Positions 5,722 through 32,000 of a stretch of DNA of 32,000 bases are shown here, piece by piece. A program made the position numbers and the translations under genes. Positions within the stretch are counted from its first letter, which is position 1. Each line of letters begins with the position of its first letter. Where the stretch lies: assembly GCA_965219605.1 (NCBI GenBank), contig CBDCOC010000001.1, positions 1,844,229 to 1,876,228 of the forward strand, written 5' to 3'. A model generated the notes under the pieces. It was not told the DNA's origin and ran no database searches. It worked only from the letters and a program-made list of their open reading frames with translations. The stretch comes from Bryobacterales bacterium (GTDB lineage: Bacteria > Acidobacteriota > Terriglobia > Bryobacterales > UBA6623).

Positions 5722-7249
5722 TCAGGCGGCAGGCCCGCCCTCCACGGCGTCCGCCCGGCGGGGCAGCCCGGTGCTCAACACCCGACAGCCGTCGTCGGTC
5801 ACCTCGACCATGTCCTCAATGCGAATTCCGAGGTTTTCCGCGGGCAGGTACAAGCCCGGCTCGATGGCAAGGACCATGCCCGGTTTCAAGGCGCGATCCG
5901 GTGGCGGCGGGTCATGCACGTCCAGGCCCACGTGATGGCCGATGGCGTGCGGCAGGTAGGGGTCCACCCCGCGGGGCGCCCTCTGACGCAAGGCGCGCTG
6001 GGCGGTCGACTCGATGCTAGACCGGGAAGGGCCGCCAAGGAAGGCGCCGGGCCTGACAGCCGCAACCGCCCGGCCTTGGGCCTCGAGCACTGCCTCATAA
6101 AGCAGCCGCTGCCGCTCGCTGAAACGCCGGCCGACGGGAATGCTGCGGGCGATGTCGGCAGAGTAGCGGGACCGCTCGCCACCGGCATCGATAAGTAGTG
6201 CCTGCGACAAAACCCCCTAAAATCCGTTCTCCACTAGCAAGACGGGCCGATTGGTCAACAAAGTAAAGACTTGTTGGAGCAGGCTGCACGGTATGTAGTG
6301 GGTTGCCGCCAGGCGAAGATCGCAGCTAATGGGCCGGATCCGAGCCAACGGACCGCTGCCCGCCTAATCTTCGCCTGCGTCGATTGCACGCAACCGTTTT
6401 GAATACAACGACATGGATGCTTTTGTCGCAAGCACTAAGTAGCACCTGCCCCCGTGCCAAGCGGTCGGCATTGCGCTGGTAGTGCAGGATCGTCGCATTC
6501 GCCCCCGCGGCAACGATCGGAGGAAAGGCCAGCCGCTCGCAGCCGGCACGGAACGCGCCGCTGATCAATCCGGCGGCAACGTCACGCTCGGTCGCGCCGT
6601 CGGCAACCTTGGCCCACGCCTCGCGAAAAGCCGCTTCGGTAGCTTGGACGGCCGCTTCGATCAGCGCGACTTCGGACGGGGACTTGACGGAGCGCAGCGT
6701 GGCGAGTAGGCCGCGGATGACGCGTGCCGGCCGGGACCCTGCCGCTTCCACGAGACGCTCGTGCCGCGAGCGCTCGGGGAAGTTGTCCGGCACTGCGTGG
6801 AACAGGCTCGCCAGCGCGCCCCGTTCCCGCAGCAGGGCACGCGCGACGCGCCGGAACTCGGACGCGGCGAGGACTTCCGCGAATCCCAAGTGCCCGGCAT
6901 CCTCCGGCCGCAAGCTCGGCCCGGACCACTTCGCGCCCGGACCGCTCGCGCCGCCCAGGAACAAGATCTCGCGATACGGGCTGCGGCCGCGGGCTGGAGC
7001 GATCAGCAACGCCGCGCCCGGCTCCTCATGCCCCGTGAGATAGAAGAAATTGCTCTCCTGGCGAAAACCGGTGAACCCGGACCGTCCTTCGGACTCGGTC
7101 GAGCCCAGCAGGGCGATCACGCCGCGGCCGACCCGGCCCGCCAGCGCCTGGCGGCGCCGGGCATATTCCGCCGCGCCAATCCCGCCGCCCGCCCGCAGGC
7201 AAGGCAGGGCCGCACAAGCAGCCAAGAACGACCGGCGAGTCCGCGCCAA
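5722..7249 (-). pseudogene. pepP: Xaa-Pro aminopeptidase (M24B, PepP-like) interrupted by a 238-bp insertion
   Basis: The 5' part (about 7249 down to 6437) carries a creatinase/AMP_N-like region, FRQESNFFYLTGHEEPGA, VKSPSEVALIEAA and PPIVAAGANATILHY...GQVLL. The 3' part (6197 down to 5722) carries IDAGGERSRYSADIARSIPV, HAIGHHVGLDVHD and LAIEPGLY...GIRIEDMV. The two parts are in different frames, separated by the element plus its duplication. A candidate TTG start at 7249 precedes an RTRRSFLAACAAL signal-like segment; this start is uncertain. Confidence 0.8.
6198..6435 (+). mobile_element. MITE-like non-autonomous element, copy 1 (238 bp)
   Basis: Termini are GTGCCTGCGACAAAA and TTTTGTCGCAAGCAC (14/15 inverted repeat). 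It is flanked by direct TAAGTA at 6192-6197 and 6436-6441. It has no credible ORF. It appears identical to the reverse complement of 22607-22844. Confidence 0.85.
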
Positions 7250-13112: not shown

Positions 13113-14714
13113 CTACAGCCCCCACACCGTGATCGGCAGTTCGCCCGCTTGCGGCTCGCGGCGGAACAAGCGCTCGTCCCACGAGCGGCTAGGCCGCAAG
13201 TCGAAAACCACCAAATGCCCCGCTTCCGCCCCGCAGCGGTCCATGTACTCGGCCGTCTGCTCCCGCCCCTCGCGCAGCAAGCTCTCCAACCCAACTTTCG
13301 CCCTGCGCACTTTGCACTCGATGACGTAATTGCGCGGGCGCACCCGGCCCCCTGGCCCGCCGCGGCCCCACTCGATCAACAAGTCCGTGCGCCCGCGACC
13401 CACCGCGTACTCGCGCCCGATGCGCCCGCCGCTGTTGACCACCCGCTGCAGGTAGGCATGCAGCACCAACTGCGGCCCCGCCTCGGCGTGCCGGTAGCGC
13501 TCCACCCACGACTCGGCGTGCTCGCGGAAATAGCCCTGGAACGCGCTCAGCAGCCCGGCCACATCCAGACTGCCGTCGGCCTGCACGTACCACTCCGGCT
13601 TGACTTGCAGCTCAAGCCCCGATTGCAGCACTGCGGTCAGCTCGCGCGGCACCACCTCGGCATAGATCGGGTTCGCCATGCGCACTTCGCCCTTAGCAGC
13701 CACCAAGCCCAGATCGCGCACATACTCCAAGTCGCGTAGCGAGTAGTCCCAATCCGCAGACCCGGCCAGCATGGGCAGGATCACGCGCCGCACGCGCTCT
13801 TCGCGCAACTTGTCGGCCAGTTGGTCGAGGTGCGTCACGCGCCGCACAATGAGCGCCTCCTTGGCCGAGTCGATGGCTTGCATGCTGACGAGCTGCGTCG
13901 GGTCCGCACCGGGCTGGGCCCGCAAACAGGCCTCATATGCCAAGGCGTTGACCAGCCACGGCTGGCCGCAGGTCAGCGCCCAGATACGTTCGACCGCCGC
14001 CGTCTCGAAGGCTTGGCCGCGCTCGGCCGTGTACTGCGCCAGCAACTCCCGCACCTCTCTATGCGAAAAATCGCCGAGGCGCAGCGATTCGGCCTTGATG
14101 TTGAAGGCGCTGCCGCCCTTGACGTTGGCCCCCTCCCGGCTGGAATAGATCTGGTAGTCGCGCACGTCGCGCACGCCGCACAGGATCACGCTTTGCGGGA
14201 AATGCTGCGGCCGTCGGTCATAGTTCGCCCGCAACTGGCGCAGCACCGAGATCAGCGTGTCGCCGACCAGCGCATCGATCTCGTCGAGCAGCAGGACCAG
14301 CGGCTTGGCACTTGCCGCCGACCAGCGCACCAGCGTCTCGCCGAGCGCGCCATCCGGGCCCTCGCTCTGCAGGTAGTGCGCCCGCTGGCGGTCCACGAAG
14401 TCGTCCTGCAAAACATCGCGGGCACGGGAGGCCAACTGCCCGAGCACCCCTTGCATCGCCCGGGCGGTGTCCTCGCCGGCCGCTTGGCCCGCTTCCACGT
14501 TCACGTACAGGCAGCGGTACAGGCCCTCCGCGTTGAGACGGTCTTGCAGCGCCAGCAGGGTCGAAGTCTTGCCCGTCTGGCGCGGAGCGTGCAGGACGAA
14601 GTACTTCTTGCGGGCGATCAGTTCAAGGATCTCAGCGAGGTTGACGCGCGCCAGCGGATCGATGCAGTAATGCTCGCCCTCATTCACTGGGCCCTCGGTG
14701 TTGAAGTAGCGCAC
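13113..14714 (-). CDS. AAA-ATPase-like protein with C-terminal PD-(D/E)XK nuclease-like domain
   Basis: RYFNTEGPVNEGEHYCIDPL...KKYFVLHAPRQTGKTS (Walker A), PLVLLLDEIDAL (Walker B) and C-terminal GRGRTDLLIEW...NYVIECKV (D...ExK). Homologues begin close to YFNT, so the GTG at 14714 is preferred over the ATG at 14987. Confidence 0.8.
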   Translation of the reverse strand: MRYFNTEGPVNEGEHYCIDPLARVNLAEILELIARKKYFVLHAPRQTGKTSTLLALQDRLNAEGLYRCLYVNVEAGQAAGEDTARAMQGVLGQLASRARDVLQDDFVDRQRAHYLQSEGPDGALGETLVRWSAASAKPLVLLLDEIDALVGDTLISVLRQLRANYDRRPQHFPQSVILCGVRDVRDYQIYSSREGANVKGGSAFNIKAESLRLGDFSHREVRELLAQYTAERGQAFETAAVERIWALTCGQPWLVNALAYEACLRAQPGADPTQLVSMQAIDSAKEALIVRRVTHLDQLADKLREERVRRVILPMLAGSADWDYSLRDLEYVRDLGLVAAKGEVRMANPIYAEVVPRELTAVLQSGLELQVKPEWYVQADGSLDVAGLLSAFQGYFREHAESWVERYRHAEAGPQLVLHAYLQRVVNSGGRIGREYAVGRGRTDLLIEWGRGGPGGRVRPRNYVIECKVRRAKVGLESLLREGREQTAEYMDRCGAEAGHLVVFDLRPSRSWDERLFRREPQAGELPITVWGL

Positions 14715-14875
14715 GACAGCTTGAGTATGGCATGGATCCTCGGCACCAGCGACGGCCGCCGGCAATTCCCACTGTGGCTTTTTTTCGTCGCGCGCACCGC
14801 TGCGCCGCAGGCCGCTGTGCAGCAAGCCTCGGCCCTGCTTGCCTAGCCGCCCGTGCGAGAAAGTGCGGGATGTCC

Positions 14876-14889
14876 GGGGGGGGGGGGGG
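14876..14889. repeat. Homopolymeric G14 (C14 on the gene strand) tract
   Basis: Counted directly: G at every position from 14876 to 14889. Confidence 0.95.
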
Positions 14890-15217
14890 CAGCCATTCCC
14901 AGTATGGCTTCGAAGGATGGACTGGGCGGGCAGCGATTGGCCTGCCAGGGAGGACGGCTGGTCTAGTGGGGCGGCAGATCGGGACACACGGCCGCTGGCC
15001 GGTTGCTACCGCGCAGCGATGCGGCATCACCCGATTCAGAATGCGCTGACACCTCCGTCAAGTCGGTCCCCGTACGAATGGGAGATCGGATCATCATCTC
15101 GCTTCTCCCTAATGGTCGGTCAAAGGCCGGGAGGAGCCGACAACCCGGCTGCCCGCCGCTTCCGCCAGCCGCTTGCCATCCACCACGGAACTGGCAGCAC
15201 CGGCAAATCCAGATTCT

Positions 15218-20908: not shown

Positions 20909-20984
20909 GCGGGAGTAACTCAGCTGGTAGAGTGCGACCTTGCCAAGGTCGATGTCGCGGGTTCGAGTCCCGTCTCCCGCTCCA
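20909..20984 (+). tRNA. tRNA-Gly (anticodon GCC), CCA encoded
   Basis: Hand-folded cloverleaf. Acceptor stem GCGGGAG/CTCCCGC, D arm ACTC..GAGT, anticodon arm CGACC-TTGCCAA-GGTCG, T arm GCGGG-TTCGAGT-CCCGT. Confidence 0.9.
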
Positions 20985-21000
20985 CTCCGGCCGAGGCTGT

Positions 21001-21075
<75 letters not shown>

Positions 21076-21539
21076 CTCCCTATCGCCTTGGTCTGGCTAT
21101 GATTATCTTTGTTTTCAGTCACTTGCCGATGTCCCGTATTGGCACATGAGCGGATCAGTTCGGGGCAAATCGCATCAGTCCAGAGCAGTTCGGAGGGCAG
21201 GGCGGGCCCGAAGTGGCCGCTTCCCTTTAGCTACGACCGCGGCGGCAAGAAGGGCTAGCACGCGATGGTCTGCGGCTTTCCCTGCGCTCTCGATGTTCTT
21301 GCCGACAACACCGTCGATCCGACCAGTTGTAGCGCAAAGGCCAGCCCTGCGCGAACACTTCGGCATCGCCCTGACCTCGCTCGCCCGGCCCGCGATAATA
21401 AAACAAAAATGAATAAGAATGACCTGAATGGCTAGCCTCCCAGCACCCTCGCTCGCCCGATTCCCGCCTACTTGCCACGAGGCACAACCCGATCTTCCCC
21501 CGGCTATCCCCATCCATGCTGCGGTCGCCCTTCGGGATC

Positions 21540-21782
21540 CTACGCGGCCACTCTCTGGCCGCGACGCAAAACCGGCAAAAATAATTTTTCGCTGGGCACT
21601 CGGCATTGCGTCTTTTCATCGCAGCACAGCACGCTCGACTTCTCAGGCGGATAATCGATGAATACCGGGGAATCGGGAGGATCTGGCCACGGAACACCGT
21701 TTGCTTCCATCAATCCGTCGATTACGCTCCAGTCCGTGTGCCCCTCAACGAGCAGCTTCCGGGGATGATTCCCTTTGGCAAC
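21540..21782 (-). pseudogene. Possible Toprim-like (DUF3226/DUF4435/RloB-type) partner remnant
   Basis: Directly after the ATPase TGA, in the same frame: VAKGNHPRKLLVEGHTDWSVIDGLMEANGVPW... The LLVEGxxD motif resembles the N-terminal Toprim glutamate motif of ATPase-associated nucleases. There is no start codon, the frame stops after 80 codons, and I see no recognisable continuation. Confidence 0.3.
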
Positions 21783-23142
21783 TCACCGAACCTCTATGCC
21801 CCGCTCAGCGGCGGCGAGGATAGCTTCCCGGCTGAACCTGACCGCTTCGCTCCGACTCCGGTCGATCCTCTGAATCGTTACTTCGCCGGGCTCGGATTTC
21901 GCGATTACCGCCAAGCTTTCGTAGCAGTCGCGACTGTGGGTCGTGGCGAACACCTGAACCGACAGCATACCCGCCTGTTCATTTATCATCCGCCACATTT
22001 CTTCCATCACCGAGAAGTGCAAGCCGGTGTCGATCTCGTCGACCAACAGGACACCTCCCTCGGAGTTCGCGAGAGAAAGCGCGAGCCCTAGCATCCGCCA
22101 CATTCCATCGCCCACACTTCCGATCGGAACGCGGTCGACAACTTCGCGAAGCTTGATTACCACGCCCCTGGGCGCATCGCGATCAAAGCGGCCACGGTCG
22201 TCTGCAACCAGTGCAATTCGCTCGATGGCCGGCTCAACGATGCGAAGTGCCTGCGCAATGGCCTTTTCCTTGGGTGTCAGGACGAACTTGCTGAACATGC
22301 GAACAGCATCCGCCGCTGTCACGCCCCTGGTTCTAACGAATTGCACCGTCTTGCTCGAGCCGTTTCGTCCGCGCGCCTGCAGTCGAGGCCAGAACAGCAG
22401 TCCTTCATCGGTGAGGGCTGCCTTGTAGTGGTCATCCGGGGCCGACCACTCGACGTGAAGGGCAAGCGGCTCGTCTTCGACGCCGTCTGGCACTTCCGCA
22501 CTCCATTCGTCGCAATTCCGGACGGTCGGGCCCTCGACGTACATCGTCACCGTGTTATTCCAACTCGCTCCAGGGATGTCATCGCTACGGTCCGCTTCGA
22601 TAACTAGTGCTTGCGACAAAAGCATCCATGTCGTTGTATTCAAAACGGTTGCGTGCAATCGACGCAGGCGAAGATTAGGCGGGCAGCGGTCCGTTGGCTC
22701 GGATCCGGCCCATTAGCTGCGATCTTCGCCTGGCGGCAACCCACTACATACCGTGCAGCCTGCTCCAACAAGTCTTTACTTTGTTGACCAATCGGCCCGT
22801 CTTGCTAGTGGAGAACGGATTTTAGGGGGTTTTGTCGCAGGCACTAACTATCCGGCCACCAAGCTCGCGGTTCGCGAAAATATGCGACATATCGAGACCA
22901 TCCGATCGAGTGCCGGGTGGAGCAGTTGGATCCTCGTCGCTCGAGTAGCCCCATTCCCCCCTACGCCGCGCAATGTCTGACAGCACTCTTGGGTTGCCAG
23001 GCGAACACAGCAATTCGATGCACTCCAGAATCGAGGTCTTGCCGCAGTTGTTCGCGCCGACGAGCAGGTTGACGCGGCCGAGCCCTTGCATCTGGAACGA
23101 GTCTAGACCGCGGTAGCCCTGAATTCGTATCGATGAATACAA
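21783..23142 (-). pseudogene. ABC/AAA_21-type ATPase (OLD/AbiL/PARIS-AriA-like) interrupted by the 238-bp element
   Basis: N-terminal part: (TTG)YSSIRIQGYRGLDSF...VNLLVGANNCGKTSILE (Walker A), preceded by GGAG 6 nt upstream. C-terminal part: VLLVDEIDTGLHFSVM (Walker B) and VFATTHSRD (H-loop). The junction GGRIV / IEADR is split by the element at 22607-22844. Confidence 0.8.
22607..22844 (-). mobile_element. MITE-like non-autonomous element, copy 2 (238 bp, inverted relative to copy 1)
   Basis: Termini are GTGCTTGCGACAAAA and TTTTGTCGCAGGCAC. It is flanked by direct TAACTA at 22601-22606 and 22845-22850. Its reverse complement reads identically to 6198-6435 on base-by-base comparison by eye. 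Confidence 0.85.
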
Positions 23143-23300
23143 TGCGCTCTCCGTAACGGTGGAGGTGTTTTAAGCATGACACGCTCAATCACATGCTCCG
23201 GGCGTGGTGCTGTCTCGGTTTAGTCCACTGAACGACCACCGACTGAAAGTCGCTGGCACGGCTAAAGCCGCCTGAGAGGTGCCCAGCTGAAGCCGGCTCA

Positions 23301-23545
23301 TCAGGGCGACTCGGTCGCTACCACTCGGAAGCCCTCTACGTCTTCGTCCCATCTCTGCCCTTCGATGCACTCCCGCACCGCCTGCTCGTCCACTGCCCCC
23401 ACCGTCGCGCAGAAATCCCCCCGTCCGCACAGCCGCTACCCCCAGTACCGCTTCCGCAAATGCGGGAACTCGTCCTGCAACCGCCGTGACGAACGCCCCT
23501 TGCTCTTGCTGTACTCCTAGCTCAGCTCCTGACACGACTCTGTCG
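23301..23545 (-). pseudogene. IS200/IS605-family TnpA (Y1 transposase) C-terminal relic
   Basis: The hand translation gives ...QELS*EYSKSKGRSSRRLQDEFPHLRKRYWG*RLCGRGDFCATVGAVDEQAVRECIEGQRWDEDVEGF. This matches the conserved LKGRSS..L..EFP.L.KRYWGQHLWARGYFC.TVG block. In-frame stops lie at 23517-19 and 23436-38. The N-terminal catalytic half is missing. Confidence 0.65.
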
Positions 23546-23552
23546 CGAAAAT

Positions 23553-23587
23553 TTGACTTAACGTTCATTATCATATACATTGTATAT
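23553..23587 (+). promoter_or_regulatory. Candidate hipBA promoter with overlapping palindromic operator
   Basis: TTGACT (23553-58), N17, TACATT (23576-81). A perfect 7-1-7 palindrome ATATACA-T-TGTATAT (23573-87) is nested in the outer inverted repeat CTTAAC...GTTAAG. It lies 31 nt upstream of the hipB ATG. Confidence 0.45.
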
Positions 23588-23617
23588 GTTAAGGATTGCA
23601 AACGTGGATTTTATAGC

Positions 23618-23959
23618 ATGAAGAAGAATCCATTCTCAAACGTGCCTATACCCGTCGGCCACGCCCTGCGTAAGTTGGGGCACGATATCCGGGATGCGCG
23701 CCGCCGCCGCCGCATCCCCGTAGCGATCCTAGCCGAGCGAGCGTCTGTCAGCCGCACCACCTTGAGCAAGGTCGAGAAGGGCGAGACCGGCGTCTCGCTG
23801 GGTATCTACGCCACTGTGCTTTTCGTGCTGGGCATGATCGACCGGCTCGCCGATGTCGCCGACCCGCGACATGATTCCGTCGGCCTTGCGCTTGAGGAGG
23901 AGCACCTGCCGGAACGCATCCGGCTCCCCCGCCCCGGCAAGCCCAAAGGTGCGGCGTGA
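23618..23959 (+). CDS. hipB: XRE-family HTH antitoxin (HipB-like)
   Basis: HALRKLGHDIRDARRRRRIPVAILAERASVSRTTLSKVEKGETGVSLGIYATVLFVLG is an XRE helix-turn-helix. Its stop overlaps the hipA start. Confidence 0.8.
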   Translation: MKKNPFSNVPIPVGHALRKLGHDIRDARRRRRIPVAILAERASVSRTTLSKVEKGETGVSLGIYATVLFVLGMIDRLADVADPRHDSVGLALEEEHLPERIRLPRPGKPKGAA

Positions 23960-25215
23960 TGGATCGCAACATCCTCGTCTATGTGGACCTGCTCGGCACT
24001 CCCCATCTCGTTGGACGGCTCTGGGCGCGCACGCACCGCAACAAGGAAGGAGCCACGTTTCAATATGCCGACAGCTGGCTCGTCAACCCTAATCGTTTCT
24101 CGCTGGAGCCGGCGCTCACAGTTGGGCCCGGCCCCTTTCACGCCCCATCCGACAAGCCCCTGTTCGGAGCCCTCGGCGACTCAGTCCCGGACCGCTGGGG
24201 ACGCGTGCTCATGCGCCGTGCCGAGCGCCGCCGTGCGGAATCGCAGCACGAGACGCCGCGCACGCTCCGGCAAATCGACTGCCTGCTGCTGGTGGACGAT
24301 GAGGCCCGCCAGGGCGCATTGCGTTTTGCGGAACAAGAAGACGGACCGTTCCTGGCCCCGCAGGGACCAACAAGGATCCCGCCGCTCGTCGAACTTCCCC
24401 GCCTGCTTTCCGCCGCCGAGCATATCCTAGAGGACACCGATACCAACCAAGATTTGCGTCTGCTTCTTGCCCCCGGCTCATCTCTCGGGGGCGCACGGCC
24501 CAAGGCATCGGTCCGTGACCGCAACGGGCATCTCACAATCGCTAAGTTCCCCAGCCCGAGCGACGAAATCAAGACGGTGCTCTGGGAGGCCGTCGCCCTG
24601 ACGCTCGCCGCGAGGGCCGGCATTGCCGTCCCGTCCTGGCAGCTCGAAACCGTCGCCGACAAGCCGGTCCTCTTGCTCCGGCGCTTCGACCGGGAGGACG
24701 GCGCGCGCATCCCGTTTCTCTCAGCAATGAGCATGCTTGGCGCACGGGACAACGAAACGCGGAGTTATCTCGAATTCGTCGATGTCCTGCGCCGGTACGG
24801 CGCAGCACCAGAGGCCGATATGCAGGCCCTGTGGCGGCGCATCGTCTTCAGCATCCTGATCTCCAACACCGACGACCATCTGCGCAACCATGGCTTTCTC
24901 TATGCCGATCTGTCCGGCTGGCGTCTCTCCCCGGCCTACGACCTCAACCCAGTGCCCACCGAAGTCAAGCCGCGTGTGCTCTCAACGGCCATCGATCTTG
25001 ACGATACGACGGCCTCTCTTGACCGCGCACTGGAGGTGTCGTCGTATTTCGGGTTGGAACTGGGAAAATCCCAGCGCATCGCCAAGGAAGTGGCACAAGC
25101 GGTTGCGCCATGGCGAAGCGAGGCAGCCGCGCTCGGCCTGACCTCCGCCGAGATCGACCGCATGGCCTCCGCCTTCGAACACGACGACCTCAAGGCGGCA
25201 CGACGCGGCAGTTGA
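23956..25215 (+). CDS. hipA: Type II toxin HipA-family serine/threonine kinase
   Basis: N-terminal couple_hipA-like VYVDLLGTPHLVGRLW, then GALGDSVPDRWGR, LAPGSSLGGARPKASV, NTDDHLRNHGFLY and LSPAYDLNP. The start is GTG at 23956 or ATG at 23959. Confidence 0.9.
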   Translation: MMDRNILVYVDLLGTPHLVGRLWARTHRNKEGATFQYADSWLVNPNRFSLEPALTVGPGPFHAPSDKPLFGALGDSVPDRWGRVLMRRAERRRAESQHETPRTLRQIDCLLLVDDEARQGALRFAEQEDGPFLAPQGPTRIPPLVELPRLLSAAEHILEDTDTNQDLRLLLAPGSSLGGARPKASVRDRNGHLTIAKFPSPSDEIKTVLWEAVALTLAARAGIAVPSWQLETVADKPVLLLRRFDREDGARIPFLSAMSMLGARDNETRSYLEFVDVLRRYGAAPEADMQALWRRIVFSILISNTDDHLRNHGFLYADLSGWRLSPAYDLNPVPTEVKPRVLSTAIDLDDTTASLDRALEVSSYFGLELGKSQRIAKEVAQAVAPWRSEAAALGLTSAEIDRMASAFEHDDLKAARRGS

Positions 25216-25343
25216 TTCCTTGCGAGTACCTCGCACCAACGCAGCCATTCGATCACTCTCGCATGAAGATGCAAGAGCGGGTAGACGGATCGCCGCAGCC
25301 TGCCGGCGATCTCTTCGTGACCAGCCCGGGCGATCGACCGTAG

Positions 25344-25478
25344 CTCCTTGCGAAACCGCTCGTTTGGGAGGATTGGCACCTTGCCGAGCAGCGGCTGGTC
25401 GATCTCCAGTCCGGGACACCTCCAGCCGTCCCGCTGGAAGAGGTGATCGAACTCTATGGCTTGGAGAGTCGAGATTGA
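25344..25478 (+). pseudogene. C-terminal remnant of a RelB/ParD-type antitoxin
   Basis: ...VWEDWHLAEQRLVDLQSGTPPAVPLEEVIELYGLESRD* resembles antitoxin tails paired with RelE/ParE toxins. An upstream stop at 25341 removes the DNA-binding N-terminus. Confidence 0.4.
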
Positions 25479-25725
25479 GCGCGCCGCCGTGCGCGACTTG
25501 GGCAAGCTCGACCGACAGGCGGCACGGCGCATTCTGGCGTTTCTGCACGGACGAATTACCGCGCTGGGCGACCCGCGCGGCATCGGCGAGGCGCTCAAGG
25601 GTTCGCGACGCGGCGAGTTTTGAAAATATCAGGCGGGCGATTATCGGATCATCCCCCGCATGGAGGGCGATGCTTCGCGAGTCTTGGTGGTGAGAGCCGC
25701 CCGTCGCGACAGAGTGTACAGGCAA
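25456..25725 (+). pseudogene. RelE/ParE-family toxin with an in-frame TGA
   Basis: MAWRVEIERAAVRDLGKLDRQAARRILAFLHGRITALGDPRGIGEALKGSRRGEF*KYQAGDYRIIPRMEGDASRVLVVRAARRDRVYR. The stop at 25621-23 sits where the family has a conserved Trp. The native 3' end is replaced by IS1595-relic sequence. Confidence 0.7.
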
Positions 25726-25814
25726 GCGTTACATGGCAGTCGGAAAACACGGCACGCTGCCAGAACGGCTTGGTTTCGATCCAGGAAACCATGGCCCCTT
25801 GGCCAAAGCAAGAC

Positions 25815-26385
25815 CCGATTACCCAGCAGTTCCAGCCGCAGACAGGAGGCGAAGCGTTCGGGGGGGCGTGCGGCGGCATACACGAGGCGAGGCACGAGAG
25901 CAGCAAACTGGTAGCGTCGATTGAAGCGGTAGGAAAACTCGGCCAGATAGCGCCTCTCGCAAGCGGGGTAGATGCCGTCGATGGCCCGCTTGACGTTGCC
26001 CAGCAAGGTGTTCACCCAACTCAATCCCGGTGCCTCGCAACGGCCTTTACCGCCGACGGCAGCGGGCCGGAAGCAAGCCAGCCACCGGAACTCAGCCGTA
26101 GCCGCCCGAGATGCCTCTCCGCGCTGACTTGCGCCGCCGCTACAAAGGCTGTCTTGCTGGCCGCCCCACGCCCGCGCTTGCCGCCGCGGCTATCGCCGCC
26201 CAAGTCGGCGTCATCGCGGGCGGCAATGCCGCGCAGCCGCTGGCTTTCATCCCGCTCGCGCATGGCTTGCATTAGTTTGTGCTTCATGCTCCAAGCAGTG
26301 TTGTAGCTGACACCTAACCCAAGTTCTGGACCTCCTAGCGCTGAACTCTGTTCTTGGCATAGGTAACTTCTTAAAAATCAGATAG
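25815..26385 (-). pseudogene. IS1595-family transposase relic
   Basis: GVSYNTAWSMKHKLMQAMRERDESQRL...DDADLGGDSRGGKRGRGAASKTAFVAAAQ, then in another frame LACFRPAAVGGKG...SWVNTLLGNVKRAIDGIY...YLAEFSYRFNRRY. It is frameshifted and internally deleted, and the N-terminal zinc-ribbon part is absent. Boundaries are approximate. Confidence 0.7.
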
Positions 26386-26624
26386 TTGTCACACATCAAG
26401 CAGTATCTACGTCGATCATTCGGGATCAAGAATTCGCAATTCCGGCCACTTCGGTTCGGCTGTGAATGCGAGGGGAGGCAGAATTCCCTATACTTGCTAC
26501 AGCTGCCTGCTTGCTCCGACCCGATTCAACCCCGCGTCCGAACGGGCGGAGGCCATGCCAGCAGGTGCCACTTCTGAGCCAAGAGCGGTCCAAGTCAGGA
26601 TTGCAGGAGCAAGAGAGCGCATTC

Positions 26625-27776
26625 ATGGCAGCGATGGGGTCGATCTTGGTGCTAGCAGCGGGTGCGATGTTTCTATCGCAGCCGCTGGCAGCGCAGTTGG
26701 CAAGGGATGCTACGGGCATCGCTGCAGATCCAACTGCTGAGCCAGTGGCTCTGTCTCCGCCGGATCCGGAAATGACCGCGTACATTTCGGGAAGAGTGCA
26801 AATGGCCACCGGCGGCGTGGTGCCCAAGGAGACAGTCGCACAACTCGTCTGCGGCGGCTTTCCGCGCGCCACCGATCAGGTCGGACCCGATGGCACCTTC
26901 GACATCGAACTGTCGGGCAGGGGCAGCGGCCTCGCCGACGCCACGCAAGTCGCAGGCCAAGCCTTGGGAGTGCCCCAGCCTAACCACCTCGGCATTGCCA
27001 ACATGTCCAACTGCGTCGTGCGGGCCGAGCTTTCGGGCTACCAGTCCTCCGAGATCCAACTCGGCATTCGATCGCTGTTCGACAACCCTGACGTCGGCGA
27101 GGTGATCCTCTCAAAGGCTGAAGGCGTTCTGGGGCATGCCATCAGCCCCACGATTGCCCGCGCGCCGAAGAAGGCCGTGCAGGCTTACGAATGGGCGCTG
27201 AAGCAGATCGGCAAGCCGAGCCCCAGCCTAGGCAAGGTAGCCGCGCGCCTGGAATCAGCCGTGAAAACAGACCCGAGCTTCGCGGCCGCATGGAGACTTC
27301 TGGGTCAGGTCCGGGAAGGCCTCGGAATGCCCGAGGATGCGCTGGCCGCCTACAGGCAGGCAGTGGCTGGCGACCCGTATCTTTATCCCGTTTACAAGCG
27401 TATCGTGCCGTTGCTGGTCGGGTTTGGCGACCTCGCCGGCGCAATCGAAATGGGAGAGAGGGCATTGGAGGTGAACAACCATCTTGACGATGTGAGATTC
27501 TATGTTGCCGGCGCATACCTGCGCACCGGAAATAACGAGCAGTGCATCGAGAAGTCCTTGGAACTGATCGAGAGAGAGTCGACAGACACCTATCCGCAAG
27601 CCCACCAGTTCTTGGGGGCCGCCTATGCGAACAGCGGAGAGTTCCAATCCTCGGCAACACACTTCCGGCGATTTCTCGAACTCAGACCCGATGCGACCGC
27701 CGCTGATGCTATCAGGAATCAGCTCGACGAGTGGTCCAAGCTGGGCGTGATCGCCCCCGTCGGCGCGGCAAACTGA
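26625..27776 (+). CDS. Secreted carboxypeptidase-regulatory-like / tetratricopeptide repeat protein
   Basis: Signal peptide MAAMGSILVLAAGAMFLSQPLAAQ, then ISGRVQMATGGVVPKETV...GPDGTFDIEL (CarboxypepD_reg-like), then several TPR-like helix pairs (AAWRLLGQV...DALAAYRQAVAGDP, AHQFLGAAYANSGEFQSSATHFRRFLELRPD). Confidence 0.8.
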   Translation: MAAMGSILVLAAGAMFLSQPLAAQLARDATGIAADPTAEPVALSPPDPEMTAYISGRVQMATGGVVPKETVAQLVCGGFPRATDQVGPDGTFDIELSGRGSGLADATQVAGQALGVPQPNHLGIANMSNCVVRAELSGYQSSEIQLGIRSLFDNPDVGEVILSKAEGVLGHAISPTIARAPKKAVQAYEWALKQIGKPSPSLGKVAARLESAVKTDPSFAAAWRLLGQVREGLGMPEDALAAYRQAVAGDPYLYPVYKRIVPLLVGFGDLAGAIEMGERALEVNNHLDDVRFYVAGAYLRTGNNEQCIEKSLELIERESTDTYPQAHQFLGAAYANSGEFQSSATHFRRFLELRPDATAADAIRNQLDEWSKLGVIAPVGAAN

Positions 27777-27974
27777 TTCTATCCGAAGGGGATGCCCGTG
27801 CATTGCCGTTAGCCGGCAGGCGCTGGCAGTTCGCAGACGGCGCGGGTGACGCCTTGCTTCTACAGCCAGTTGCTCAAGTCTCGCTGTCGCCACCTGCGGC
27901 AGTGCCAGCAGGGGACCGATGGCAGTGGCGGCAATTCCTTTTGCAGTACTCTCCAGCACAGGCGGCCAAAGCGC

Positions 27975-28547
27975 TCATTCTTTGAGCCGGCGCGCGACTT
28001 CAGCCAAGCGCGCGCCGAGATTGCGGGCTTCCTCGGACTCGTGCTCGCCGACGCCTTTCTCATAGTCTGGAATTCCAGTCGTGGCCGAGGCTCCCAGTCC
28101 GCCATGCGGCGCGACTAGGACCATGCCGTACTGCAGCATGCCGAGTGCCATGCTCAACATCGTGAACTCCTTGCCGTTCGATGCCGCTCCTCCGGTGGCG
28201 AAGACTGCACAGGCCTTGTTGGCGAGTCCCTTGCTGCGCCAGAATCCGAAGCCGTAGGCCCAGCCCACCAATGCCTTGCGGATCGCGACGGAGACATCTC
28301 CCATATGCACTGGCGATCCCAGCGCGACGCCATCCGCCGCTTCCAAATCTTCTTGCGTGACGTCCTCAATGCGCTTCACCACGACAGCGGCTCCCTGTCT
28401 CCGAGCCCCCTCGGCAAGGGCGTTCGCCATTGCCTCGGTGTTGCCTGTTTGCGAGTGAAAGGCCACCAGCACAGCAACCTCTCGTCCGGCGCCATGAAGC
28501 GCGCCGCTACAAAGCACAAGTACGCAGATTAGCTTGTTGAGTCGCAT
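27975..28547 (-). CDS. Flavodoxin-like fold (WrbA-type) protein with N-terminal signal peptide
   Basis: MRLNKLICVLVLCSGALHG leader, then VLVAFHSQTGNTEAMANALAEG (FMN phosphate-binding loop context) and DGVALGSPVHMGDVS. Confidence 0.8.
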   Translation of the reverse strand: MRLNKLICVLVLCSGALHGAGREVAVLVAFHSQTGNTEAMANALAEGARRQGAAVVVKRIEDVTQEDLEAADGVALGSPVHMGDVSVAIRKALVGWAYGFGFWRSKGLANKACAVFATGGAASNGKEFTMLSMALGMLQYGMVLVAPHGGLGASATTGIPDYEKGVGEHESEEARNLGARLAEVARRLKE

Positions 28548-28807
28548 GGCAGTGCCGCAGTGTCTCGCCTACGCTCATTGCAGGCAGATGGCTTCAGTTT
28601 AGCCCGCCAGCCTTTCTGCGGGCATGGACGCAGGCCGCGATTCGGCCACGACTGGCGGCTTGCAAGTGTCGACGAGAGATGTCCGTGCGTGCTAACGCTG
28701 GTGCGCGATCCACGGGCGGCCATGCCCGGTCACCTTGCATCCGTCTCCCTGCCCGTCCATGCCGGAGCAGACGGAGTGCTCCCTTCTCAGCGTGTCAAAA
28801 ACTGTAC

Positions 28808-30780
28808 GCTAGCCTGAAGTTCCAAGCCAAGCACCAAGAGAAGTCCTTATAATACATCAATTTAGCTGGGTTCGGAGGTGTTGCTTACTGGGAACAAATG
28901 GAGGTGCGGACGAGTTCCAGCGCCCGCTGCTGCAAGGCGCTCGGCTCGGTCAGCCGCTCGATGGTGGGTCCGTGCTCATCGCCGTGCAGGCGGCATTGGT
29001 GCCGACAGCGCGTGCCCAGCATCTCCAGTAACGTGGCCAAGCTGTGCAGGGGCAAGCCGGCCGCCGTACAACCGCCGTTCTTCTTCGCTTGCAAGGCTGC
29101 CCGCGGCTGGGCTGGGGCCACCGGATCGCGCACGGCCTGCTGCGCGGCCAACTCCTCATCGGCAAACAGCAGCTCGGCCAAGGCTTGGCGCAGGTGCCAT
29201 TCCACGTAATAGGCCAACACGCACAGCAGCAGGTGCGCGCGCACGCGCTGCTCGCGCCGGTGGTAGATCGGGCGCACCCGCAAGTCCACGCTCTTCAGGC
29301 AGCGAAAGGCGTTCTCGACCCGCATCAACTGCTTGTAGGAACGCACCACATCGGCGGCCGCTAGGTCGCTCTGGCTGGTGCGGATCACGTACACTCCGTC
29401 CAAGGCCGCCTCGCGCTCGATCGAGCGCTCGTCCCGCTCGTACTGCAAGCAGCCGTCGGCGATCTCAACCTGCACGTGCTTGCCAACCTTGGAGCGCTGC
29501 TTGGCCCGCCCCACTTTCTCGGCGATGGCAGTCGCCGACAGCGGTTTCTTGGTGCGCCGTTCCACAGCGCGCTGGATGCGCGCCAAGTCCTCTTCGAGAT
29601 CGGCCAGCAGCTCCTCGCGCTTGCGCCGGCGGCGCTCGGCCAAGGCCGGGTTGCAGCACACGATCAGGCGTTCGTCGGGGTACTGCGGGGAACTCACCTC
29701 CGCCAAGTTGCGCTCGTCGAATAGCGACATCTGCACGGTCTTCTCCTCCGCCAGGCGGCAGATCGCGCTGTGGCGCAAGGCCGAGATCCAGCCCAGCCCG
29801 GGGTCCTTGCGCAGCGTCTCGATCTGCGTCTGGGTGAGCATGCCGCGGTCGCCCACCAGCACCACGCGCTGCAGGCCGAATTGTGTGCGCAGAGTCTGCA
29901 CTTGATCCGGCACGGTGAGCGGATCGGCGGTGTGGCCGGGATAGGCCTGCACGGCCAGCGGTCGGCCTTCACGGTCAGTCAGCAGGCCGTAGACCACGAT
30001 CGTGCGCCCGCGCTTGCCGTCGCGGCTGTAGCCGTAGCGCATGAGCGGGCAGCTGTGGCCTTCGTAGTAGCTGCTCGAGACGTCGTAGAGCACTTGGGCG
30101 CCCTCTTGCAGGTGGCGCTGGGCCAGGCGCTTCTCAATGCGCTGCTGGCGCAGCAGCAGCCAGTCCAGGGCCTGGTAGAGGGAGTCTGCGGTGGTGTCTT
30201 GCAGGTCGAGTTCGGCGGCCAGCGTCGTGCTGTGCCAGAGGCGCGTGGTGGCGAGTTTGGAGGCGGGCTGCAGCAGGCGCTGGGCGATCATGGCCAGCAC
30301 GGTCGAGCGCTGGGGGGAGGGGCTGCGGTCGAGCAGTTGGGGCAGGCGCAGGCGGCGGAAGGCCTCCAGCAGCAGTTCGACATGGCCGTGGGGGCGGGAA
30401 CTGACGATGGAGAAGGCTTGTTCGGGACTGACGAGGGGCTGGTTCTTGAGCAGTTTGCGCAGAGCGGCAACCTTGGCGGGGGGCCAGGCGGAGAGGTTGG
30501 CGAGGGTGCGCTTACGGACCTTGGCGCCTTCGCGCCAGCCTTCGCGGAGGAGGATGGCGGGGGGCGAGTTGCGGTTGGGGACGGTTTCTACGTACATGGG
30601 AACATGATAGCAGAAGAAAGATTGCAAGTCAATGCCAAATAATACAAAAAAAGAATCAATATTGAAATTACATGGGAACAAAATACAGAGCCGGAAGGCG
30701 AGCTAATGCGGTTAAGCACTCTATTTTCAATGAGTTAGGCCCGGCTGAGCAGGGGAAACGGCTCGGAACTTCAGGCTAGC
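28808..30780 (-). mobile_element. IS1634-family insertion sequence, apparently intact (1973 bp)
   Basis: Perfect 16-bp inverted repeats GCTAGCCTGAAGTTCC (28808-28823) and GGAACTTCAGGCTAGC (30765-30780) bracket a single full-length transposase gene. The 5' leader inside the element is AT-rich. Confidence 0.8.
28885..30597 (-). CDS. IS1634-family (IS4 superfamily) DDE transposase
   Basis: MYVETVPNRNSPPAILLREGWREGAKVRKRTLANLS start, then VLYDVSSSYYEG, VVLVGDRGM and YKQLMRVENAFRCLKS blocks typical of IS1634 transposases. 570 aa from the ATG at 30597. Confidence 0.9.
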   Translation of the reverse strand: MYVETVPNRNSPPAILLREGWREGAKVRKRTLANLSAWPPAKVAALRKLLKNQPLVSPEQAFSIVSSRPHGHVELLLEAFRRLRLPQLLDRSPSPQRSTVLAMIAQRLLQPASKLATTRLWHSTTLAAELDLQDTTADSLYQALDWLLLRQQRIEKRLAQRHLQEGAQVLYDVSSSYYEGHSCPLMRYGYSRDGKRGRTIVVYGLLTDREGRPLAVQAYPGHTADPLTVPDQVQTLRTQFGLQRVVLVGDRGMLTQTQIETLRKDPGLGWISALRHSAICRLAEEKTVQMSLFDERNLAEVSSPQYPDERLIVCCNPALAERRRRKREELLADLEEDLARIQRAVERRTKKPLSATAIAEKVGRAKQRSKVGKHVQVEIADGCLQYERDERSIEREAALDGVYVIRTSQSDLAAADVVRSYKQLMRVENAFRCLKSVDLRVRPIYHRREQRVRAHLLLCVLAYYVEWHLRQALAELLFADEELAAQQAVRDPVAPAQPRAALQAKKNGGCTAAGLPLHSLATLLEMLGTRCRHQCRLHGDEHGPTIERLTEPSALQQRALELVRTSICSQ

Positions 30781-31198
30781 AGGCATACGCGATGACGATA
30801 CCGGTGCCAAAGGCTCCGCAAGCAACAGATCCCGCCAGATCTCCTCCCAGCCTCCGAGCAACTCCAGCCGATCCAGCGCGTCCACCAGAGTGGCTCTTGG
30901 TCGGTCACCTTCCGCCATGCCAATTCGGGGCGTTACGCCCCTCGCTGGCACACCATGTGAATTGGAAACGTCAAGCAGGTATTATGCGTAGTCAGACTGA
31001 CGAATACTGCTACAATCCCGTCATGGCAAAGGTGCCCGCAACTTGCAAGCAACGGTGCTAAAGGCGTAGAGATCTATCGCAGGCAGTCGACGTTCAGGCA
31101 CAAGAGTCGGCACTTCCGCCTGACCGGTGTCATGGCGCGGCGGCAGGCACGTGACCGGCATAGACCGCACGCCACACCTCGATTCGGGAGATCCAGCA

Positions 31199-32000
31199 AT
31201 GCAACACAGACTCACACGGCGAGCCTTCATGGCAGCCTCCATGGCCAGCGCGATCCACGGATGCAGCAACAGACCGGAGCGGCCGCCCGAGGCTGCCGAC
31301 CAGTTCGAACCTAACTGGGAATCCATTCAAACCCACCAAGTGCCGCAGTGGTACGACGACGCCAAGCTCGGCATCTTCGTGCATTGGGGCCTGTATTCGG
31401 TGCCGGCTTGGGCCACGCCGATCGGCGAGCTAGGCAAGTTCGACGAGGACCAGTGGTTTGCCAACAACCCCTACTCGGAGTGGTACCTCAACTCGCTCAG
31501 GATAGACGGCTCGCCCACGCAGGCGCATCACCGCAAGACATATGGCGACAATTTCGACTACATGGACTTCGCGCCACAGTTCAACGCGGCGCTGAACGGC
31601 TGGGATCCCGACGCCATGGCTGGCCTCTTCAAGGACGCCGGGGCCCGCTATGTGGTGCTAACAACCAAGCATCACGATGGCTTCACGCTCTGGCCCAGCG
31701 CGGTCGAGAACCCGAACCTTGCCCAAGGGCAGCGGTCTGCCGAGCGCGACGTGGTGGGCGAACTCACCACTGCGGTCAAGGCCGCGCAAATGCGCATGGG
31801 CCTGTACTATTCAGGCGGCTTGGATTGGAGCTTTAACCCGGAGCCGATCGACTCGTTCGAGAAGGTCTACAGCACGATCATCCACACGCAGCAGTTCGCC
31901 GACTATGCCGATGCCCACTGGCGCGAACTGATCGAAAAGTACGATCCGGCCATCCTGTGGAACGATATCGGATACCCGGAGCAGGCGGACATAGCCCAGA
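31199..32000 (+). CDS. Alpha-L-fucosidase (GH29), 3' end outside window
   Basis: This frame is not in the ORF track because it has no stop inside the window. MQHRLTRRAFMAASMASAIHG is a Tat-like leader. It is followed by WYDDAKLGIFVHWGLYSVPAW and ARYVVLTTKHHDGFTLWPS, the GH29 hallmark blocks. Confidence 0.85.
   Translation, partial: MQHRLTRRAFMAASMASAIHGCSNRPERPPEAADQFEPNWESIQTHQVPQWYDDAKLGIFVHWGLYSVPAWATPIGELGKFDEDQWFANNPYSEWYLNSLRIDGSPTQAHHRKTYGDNFDYMDFAPQFNAALNGWDPDAMAGLFKDAGARYVVLTTKHHDGFTLWPSAVENPNLAQGQRSAERDVVGELTTAVKAAQMRMGLYYSGGLDWSFNPEPIDSFEKVYSTIIHTQQFADYADAHWRELIEKYDPAILWNDIGYPEQADIAQ

Follow-up and report, generated by a model that had tools for sequence, protein, structure and literature searches.

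Two genes split by one element

The 32,000-nucleotide stretch of Bryobacterales DNA analysed here (the window) holds two minus-strand genes, one for an M24 Xaa-Pro aminopeptidase and one for an ATPase, each of which is cut in two by a copy of the same 238-bp element (Table 1). In computed alignment, 6198-6435 is the reverse complement of 22607-22844 at 238/238 positions; beyond the 238 bp the two flanks are unlike, save for the TA..TA bases of the target hexamers, and the window has no other long inverted repeat (this pair measures 248 nt at 99%, with the similar target-site duplications counted in).

The element starts GTGCCTGC... and its paired ends read GTGNNNGCGACARAA...TTYTGTCGCNNNCAC. 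Both copies carry 15-bp terminal inverted repeats (TIRs), GTGCCTGCGACAAAA on the left and GTGCTTGCGACAAAA on the right, which match at 14/15 positions; a search with the TIR pattern returned four exact occurrences in the window, against 0.13 expected. With a G+C content of 55% (the window stands at 65%), the element has stops in all six frames, a longest open stretch of 59 codons and no transposase ORF. Rfam returned no family for it at either gathering or permissive thresholds, and a promoter/terminator scan of the copy A region detected no such site. A length below some 500 bp without a transposase ORF, TIRs, a target-site duplication (TSD) of fixed length, and multiple copies together with empty sites (see below) are the features by which we class it as a MITE.

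When 22607-22850 is removed in silico, the ATPase gene becomes a continuous 380-codon frame (...ELGGRIVIEADRSDD...), from which a minus-strand protein of 371 aa can be read, with matches to AAA_21 (3.6e-20) and AAA_15 (1.7e-18). As the gene now stands, its N-terminal fragment ends ...ELGGRIV-SACDKTP-stop, running into the element; copy B thus halts translation after residue ~105, which knocks the gene out. Removal of copy A together with one TAAGTA likewise restores the aminopeptidase (AMP_N plus Peptidase_M24), whose catalytic domain, that of an aminopeptidase P, copy A splits. Both restored proteins match their Pfam/PADLOC profiles as one continuous stretch. The initial annotation had described two identical, inverted 238-bp copies, direct TAACTA repeats on either side of copy B (found at 22601-22606 and 22845-22850), and a split between GGRIV and IEADR that is mended in frame by excision of the element plus one TAACTA; all three descriptions hold, the first without a single mismatch.

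Table 1. Positions in the window of the two element copies, their parts and the genes that they interrupt
Feature	Position	Strand	Remarks
MITE copy A, 238 bp	6198..6435	+	reverse-complement match to copy B
MITE copy B, 238 bp	22607..22844	-	left end GTGCCTGCG... at 22844; 238/238 against copy A
Left terminal inverted repeat, copy B, GTGCCTGCGACAAAA	22830..22844	-	TIR pattern search
Right terminal inverted repeat, copy B, GTGCTTGCGACAAAA	22607..22621	+	TIR pattern search
TSD copy A, TAAGTA, first	6192..6197		direct repeat
TSD copy A, TAAGTA, second	6436..6441		direct repeat
TSD copy B, TAACTA, first	22601..22606		direct repeat
TSD copy B, TAACTA, second	22845..22850		direct repeat
Internal hairpin, copy A (element positions 113-180)	6310..6377	+	11-bp stem CAGGCGAAGAT/ATCTTCGCCTG, 46-nt loop
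Internal hairpin, copy B	22665..22732		same feature as copy A hairpin
Aminopeptidase gene, 5' fragment	6442..7225	-	TTG start at 7225
Aminopeptidase gene, 3' fragment	5722..6197	-	split inside conserved VLLID|AGG metal-site motif
ATPase gene, 5' fragment	22851..23142	-	TTG start at 23142; Walker A GANNCGKTS; reads 7 codons into MITE, then stop
ATPase gene, 3' fragment (IEADR... to stop)	21783..22606	-	matched by public gene call P0121
PDC-M38B/DUF3226 remnant, first 43 codons	21654..21782	-	homology to intact 216-aa gene of locus L052 stops at 21653

A strict six-base target

Seven complete copies are available to us, the two in the window and five relatives of 257 bp from other genomes (described below). 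The TSD is 6 bp in 7/7 of these, perfect in six and with one mismatch in the seventh (locus L021), and the target logo is T-A-N-N-T-A throughout. The hexamers themselves are TAAGTA and TAGTTA in the window (the latter being TAACTA on the forward strand), and TATATA, TAACTA (twice), TACATA and TATGTA/TACGTA in the relatives. A further copy, cut by the edge of its locus (L032), has TAGTTA as its left flank and fits the same rule, as does TACNTA, the flank deduced for a third copy in the genome of the window; the TA-rich hexamer preference put forward in the initial annotation can therefore be stated more sharply, as TANNTA.

The duplicated NN varies from site to site (AG, CT/GT, TA, AC, CA) and yet is repeated on both sides of the element, so that the hexamer is to be read as a true 6-bp target duplication arising from a staggered cut, which points to a transposase and not to site-specific recombination. 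We considered and rejected a 2-bp TA duplication, of the sort left by a MITE derived from IS630/Tc1-mariner: the NN is duplicated too, and nothing but the removal of 244 bp (238+6) restores the frames.

The window holds 11 native TANNTA sites, of which 2 are occupied, and their density is 0.55/kb in the accessory part (21-32 kb) versus 0.24/kb in the core. The rarity of TANNTA at 65% G+C, along with its roughly twofold density in lower-GC accessory DNA, probably explains why horizontally acquired, dispensable genes are hit, those for defence and toxins among them; composition bias is enough to account for the kinds of gene affected.

As to the accessory stretch itself (21076-32000, G+C 0.59-0.63), it is bordered by tRNA-Gly(GCC) and tRNA-Cys(GCA) at 20909-21075. 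Besides what is left of the defence genes, it contains a HipB/HipA-like pair (23573-25215), an IS, a flavodoxin-like gene and a TPR protein; no tRNA-derived att or direct repeat marking an island end was found for it. Elsewhere, in the core region, a 624-aa minus-strand ORF (13113-14987) has weak AAA_22/AAA_35 and PD-(D/E)XK (PDDEXK_9) matches and is of the ATPase-nuclease type.

Empty sites, a third copy and the orientation of the interval

In the protein database, P0122 equals the restored ATPase and P0124 the restored aminopeptidase, save for one residue in each case; the two read GGRIVIEADR and VLLIDAGG uninterrupted, and both are encoded on one 917,444-bp contig. Since both genes are intact on a single contig, we take this to be a near-identical strain in which both sites are empty, the insertions being strain-polymorphic and recent. 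A more distant protein, P0021 (94% identical to the ATPase), also reads GGRIVIEADR through site B.

A 255-aa gene call, P0121, from a contig of 3,068,232 bp matches the truncated 3' fragment of the ATPase in the window, and for this reason that contig most probably belongs to the window's genome. When six-frame peptides of the element were used as a protein query, one further protein was recovered, P0123, and it comes from the same 3,068,232-bp contig. Its first 30 residues are encoded by the MITE; the rest is a Dcm-type cytosine-5 methylase without the first ~32 profile positions, and the junction codons (T-T-Y) imply the flank TACNTA. To judge from this hybrid reading frame, a third copy in the window's genome truncates a Dcm-type cytosine-5 DNA methylase. 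The genome thus holds at least three copies, and all three known ones are genic, a count that is itself biased towards genic copies because the third was detected only through a gene call that ran into the element.

Recombination between the two inverted copies of the window would swap one flank of each. In the assembly, each copy keeps its own matching duplication and has both halves of its host gene in cis, and the assembly therefore represents the non-inverted isomer. Two further statements of the initial annotation are upheld by these results: that the 16.4-kb interval has not been inverted in this assembly, and that transposition was very recent, for which the comparison of strains (both genes intact, with one substitution each, and both sites empty as read from P0122 and P0124) now provides the support.

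Relatives in other Bryobacterales and a shared hairpin

A scan with an exact 20-mer pattern across 185k species genomes (one genome per species) gave 32 loci, of which the real ones fall only in two Bryobacterales MAGs, CAYWUV01 and CBDBKU01; the remaining loci were set aside as chance 20-mers. Between them, these MAGs hold five complete 257-bp copies, together with the edge-cut copy in L032 and a left end on its own (L001), and no two of these occupy the same site. The 257-bp forms have their ends in common with the window's element, with an interior that can barely be aligned to it, and are 95-99% identical to one another within one MAG and ~70% between MAGs. That the leftmost 20 bp look perfectly conserved in every copy is an artefact of the exact-match search pattern, and we place no weight on it.

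Several of these copies have also landed in or beside genes. In one other Bryobacterales MAG, the copy at L021:6338-6594 splits an AbiEii-like toxin gene, that at L015:3658-3914 interrupts an NYN-domain gene, and that at L022:3605-3861 lies five bases after an apparent C-terminal remnant of an IS66-type transposase (the translation being judged by eye); together, these positions suggest frequent landing in accessory, defence or toxin DNA. The solo end at L001:1497-1522 is identical to the window's element at 26/26 positions and is preceded by CAACTA; no right end and no transposase could be detected at this locus, where frameshifted Uma2-type endonuclease genes lie downstream, and it is probably a truncated copy.

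Compared with shuffled sequences, the element folds more stably (z about -3.3 to -4.3), partly through pairing of the TIRs and partly through an internal hairpin. A hairpin sits at the same relative place in L015, L021, L022 and L027 (element positions 125-197), despite poor alignability elsewhere, with the equivalent stem written as GCGAAGAT/ATCTTCGC or GCGAATGTTTG/CAAATATTCGC. Between the 238-bp and 257-bp forms, the stem differs by one compensatory G-C to T-A change and one wobble; this single compensatory event hints that the stem may be under constraint.

The ATPase and its candidate defence locus

Two PADLOC profiles fit the restored ATPase: PDC-M38A, along the protein's full length (1e-73), and AbiLi (6e-41). 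The closest intact ATPase locus fetched, L052, encodes a homologue of 88% identity, whose stop codon is overlapped by the gene for a partner, a 216-aa DUF3226 protein with a PDC-M38B match of 4.9e-56. The 'defence-like' label that the initial annotation gave to the ATPase is well founded on both counts. An AAA_21/AAA_15 ATPase beside a DUF3226 protein, the pairing looked for in PDC-M38/AbiL-like systems, is present in both loci, with the second gene intact in L052 and a remnant in the window. Gene order in the accessory stretch is rearranged with respect to L052. The 580 bp from 21653 to tRNA-Cys are unrelated to L052 and hold no recognisable gene.

The initial annotation had gone on to attribute inactivation of the ATPase gene to the insertion, and this stands, the ATPase frame being split by the element. 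The second gene of the operon was damaged independently, by truncation, so that something other than the MITE may have put the system out of action, and the candidate defence system may already have been dead when the MITE arrived.

The search for a mobilising enzyme

An autonomous element with the ends of the MITE was found neither in the genome, metagenome and viral scans (exact 18-20-mers) nor by blastn of the element against plasmids, which gave no match. The genome-collection scan yielded the MITE-like Bryobacterales copies and chance matches, but no longer element with these ends. The metagenome scan (18-mer) gave 19 loci, all chance and without a TA flank or a partner TIR, one of them (L044) within the gene of a SulP transporter. 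From the viral scan came 2 chance matches, on contigs of 37-40% GC. A literature search for the TIR string returned irrelevant matches only. Because they relied on exact 18-20-mers, the scans would have missed a partner whose ends differ slightly. Nor do the candidates nearest to known copies qualify as partners: the ORF beside the L022 copy is, by eye, an apparent IS66-type C-terminal remnant, L001 has no right end and no transposase but just Uma2-type genes, and the IS1634-like gene and second IS beside the L032 copy have ends that differ from those of the MITE.

The window itself contains a complete IS of the IS1634 family (28808-30780), whose minus-strand transposase gene (28885-30681) matches NF033559 at 2e-96. 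The best reading of its limits is 28814-30774, which gives the ends CTGAAGTTCC..., and it lies 6 kb from a MITE copy; on this reading it is flanked by a 6-bp duplication, the palindrome GCTAGC, which the repeat finder had counted as part of the inverted repeat. The IS1634 family is an IS4-related 'emerging family' with 5-6-bp AT-rich target duplications and a weak terminal consensus, C-----YT (PMC2266710).

Could a transposase of this family, for example a relative of the 28814-30774 copy acting in trans, be the mobilising enzyme? The 6-bp TANNTA duplication of the MITE falls within the range of the family (PMC2266710), the window's member has a readable 6-bp duplication, GCTAGC, and ends CTGAAGTT that fit C-----YT, and an IS1634-like gene lies ~0.9 kb from the MITE copy in L032. 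Against this, the MITE starts GTGCCTGC, without the initial C of the consensus, and has nothing in common with the IS1634-family element of the window, whose target GCTAGC is not a TANNTA; no member of the IS1634 family with ends like those of the MITE came to light, and what lies near the copy in L032 is a separate IS cluster. As the ends differ, the family is a candidate and no more, and as both the ends and the interior of the local IS are unrelated to the MITE, membership of the MITE in the family is not established. Our guess, made on the duplication criterion only, is that IS1634 offers the best available candidate, although we think it unlikely that the enzyme will prove to be of this kind.

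A model for the movement of the element

Synthesising these findings, we consider it highly probable that the 238-bp element is a non-coding, non-autonomous MITE, moved in trans by a transposase that cuts TANNTA with a 6-bp stagger. In such a model, a transposase encoded elsewhere would bind the GTGCYTGCGACAAAA ends of the element and make a 6-bp staggered cut at a TANNTA site, and repair of the resulting gaps would then duplicate the hexamer on both sides of the element. We infer that the enzyme, supplied in trans, is of the DDE type.

It might instead be argued that a tyrosine or serine site-specific recombinase carries the element, with TANNTA as the recombination core, an idea to which the constrained and partly palindromic form of the flanking hexamer lends some appeal; but a core common to element and target would not give a central NN that differs at each site and is nevertheless copied on both sides, and the element has classical TIRs and no recombinase gene, so that we hold this to be very improbable. 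P0122, P0124 and the restored frames already imply a single TANNTA at the empty sites, which likewise speaks against a recombinase. We find it scarcely credible that assembly error (collapse or duplication of a repeat) produced the second copy, or that the sequence is an immobile repeat fixed long ago: although the two copies are perfectly identical and the genome is probably metagenome-assembled, they have different flanks, each with its own perfect 6-bp duplication, and split different genes codon-precisely, the ATPase's truncated 3' fragment has a match in P0121, a public gene call made independently, a sister strain has empty sites, and relatives of the same anatomy exist in other genomes.

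Returning to the MITE moved in trans, we can also sketch a more elaborate scheme, which we regard as a long shot. Here, an orphan Bryobacterales MITE with a strict TANNTA target would be cross-mobilised by a transposase with other ends (possibly of IS1634 type) and channelled into low-GC acquired defence and toxin genes, where precise excision would make it a reversible on/off switch, the hairpin perhaps serving as a functional module. The targets that can be named are an AbiL-like ATPase, a Dcm methylase, an AbiEii toxin and an NYN nuclease.

The findings are of use in several respects. They show ongoing transposition in an uncultured soil acidobacterial lineage, the Bryobacterales; given the empty sites in a near-identical strain, both insertions provide a clean strain marker; and they document a small transposon eroding accessory genes, a candidate anti-phage system among them. 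The strict 6-bp TANNTA target is, moreover, a signature by which the responsible transposase can be sought. In annotation, three genes of the window's genome should be recorded as MITE-disrupted pseudogenes, and not as short ORFs.

Comparison with known systems

The locus at copy B resembles the two-gene defence candidates of PDC-M38/AbiL type, in that the restored ATPase matches PDC-M38A end to end and AbiLi also. It differs from an intact PDC-M38 locus in that its A gene is split by the MITE and its B gene is cut to 43 codons; on this basis, the two-gene candidate system has been broken twice.

With the IS1634 family, the MITE shares duplications of 5-6 bp that are AT-rich, and a member of the family is present in the window, with another near a MITE copy in a related MAG; it differs in its termini, which depart from both C-----YT and the ends of the local member, and in having no linked transposase.

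The element also resembles the MITEs of other bacteria, such as Correia/NEMIS of Neisseria, RUP of Streptococcus pneumoniae and Nezha of cyanobacteria, which are likewise non-coding and 100-300 bp long, have TIRs, a TSD and several near-identical copies, fold strongly as transcript or DNA, and show insertion polymorphism between strains. Correia, RUP and the IS630-derived MITEs duplicate a TA dinucleotide, whereas the duplication made by the Bryobacterales element is of 6 bp at TANNTA. In comparison with bacterial MITEs in general, the known Bryobacterales copies often lie within genes and not between them, and the parent IS was not found; many accepted MITE families are likewise orphans, with no known autonomous IS. 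As far as we could determine, this is a previously undescribed MITE family, and one of a familiar kind.
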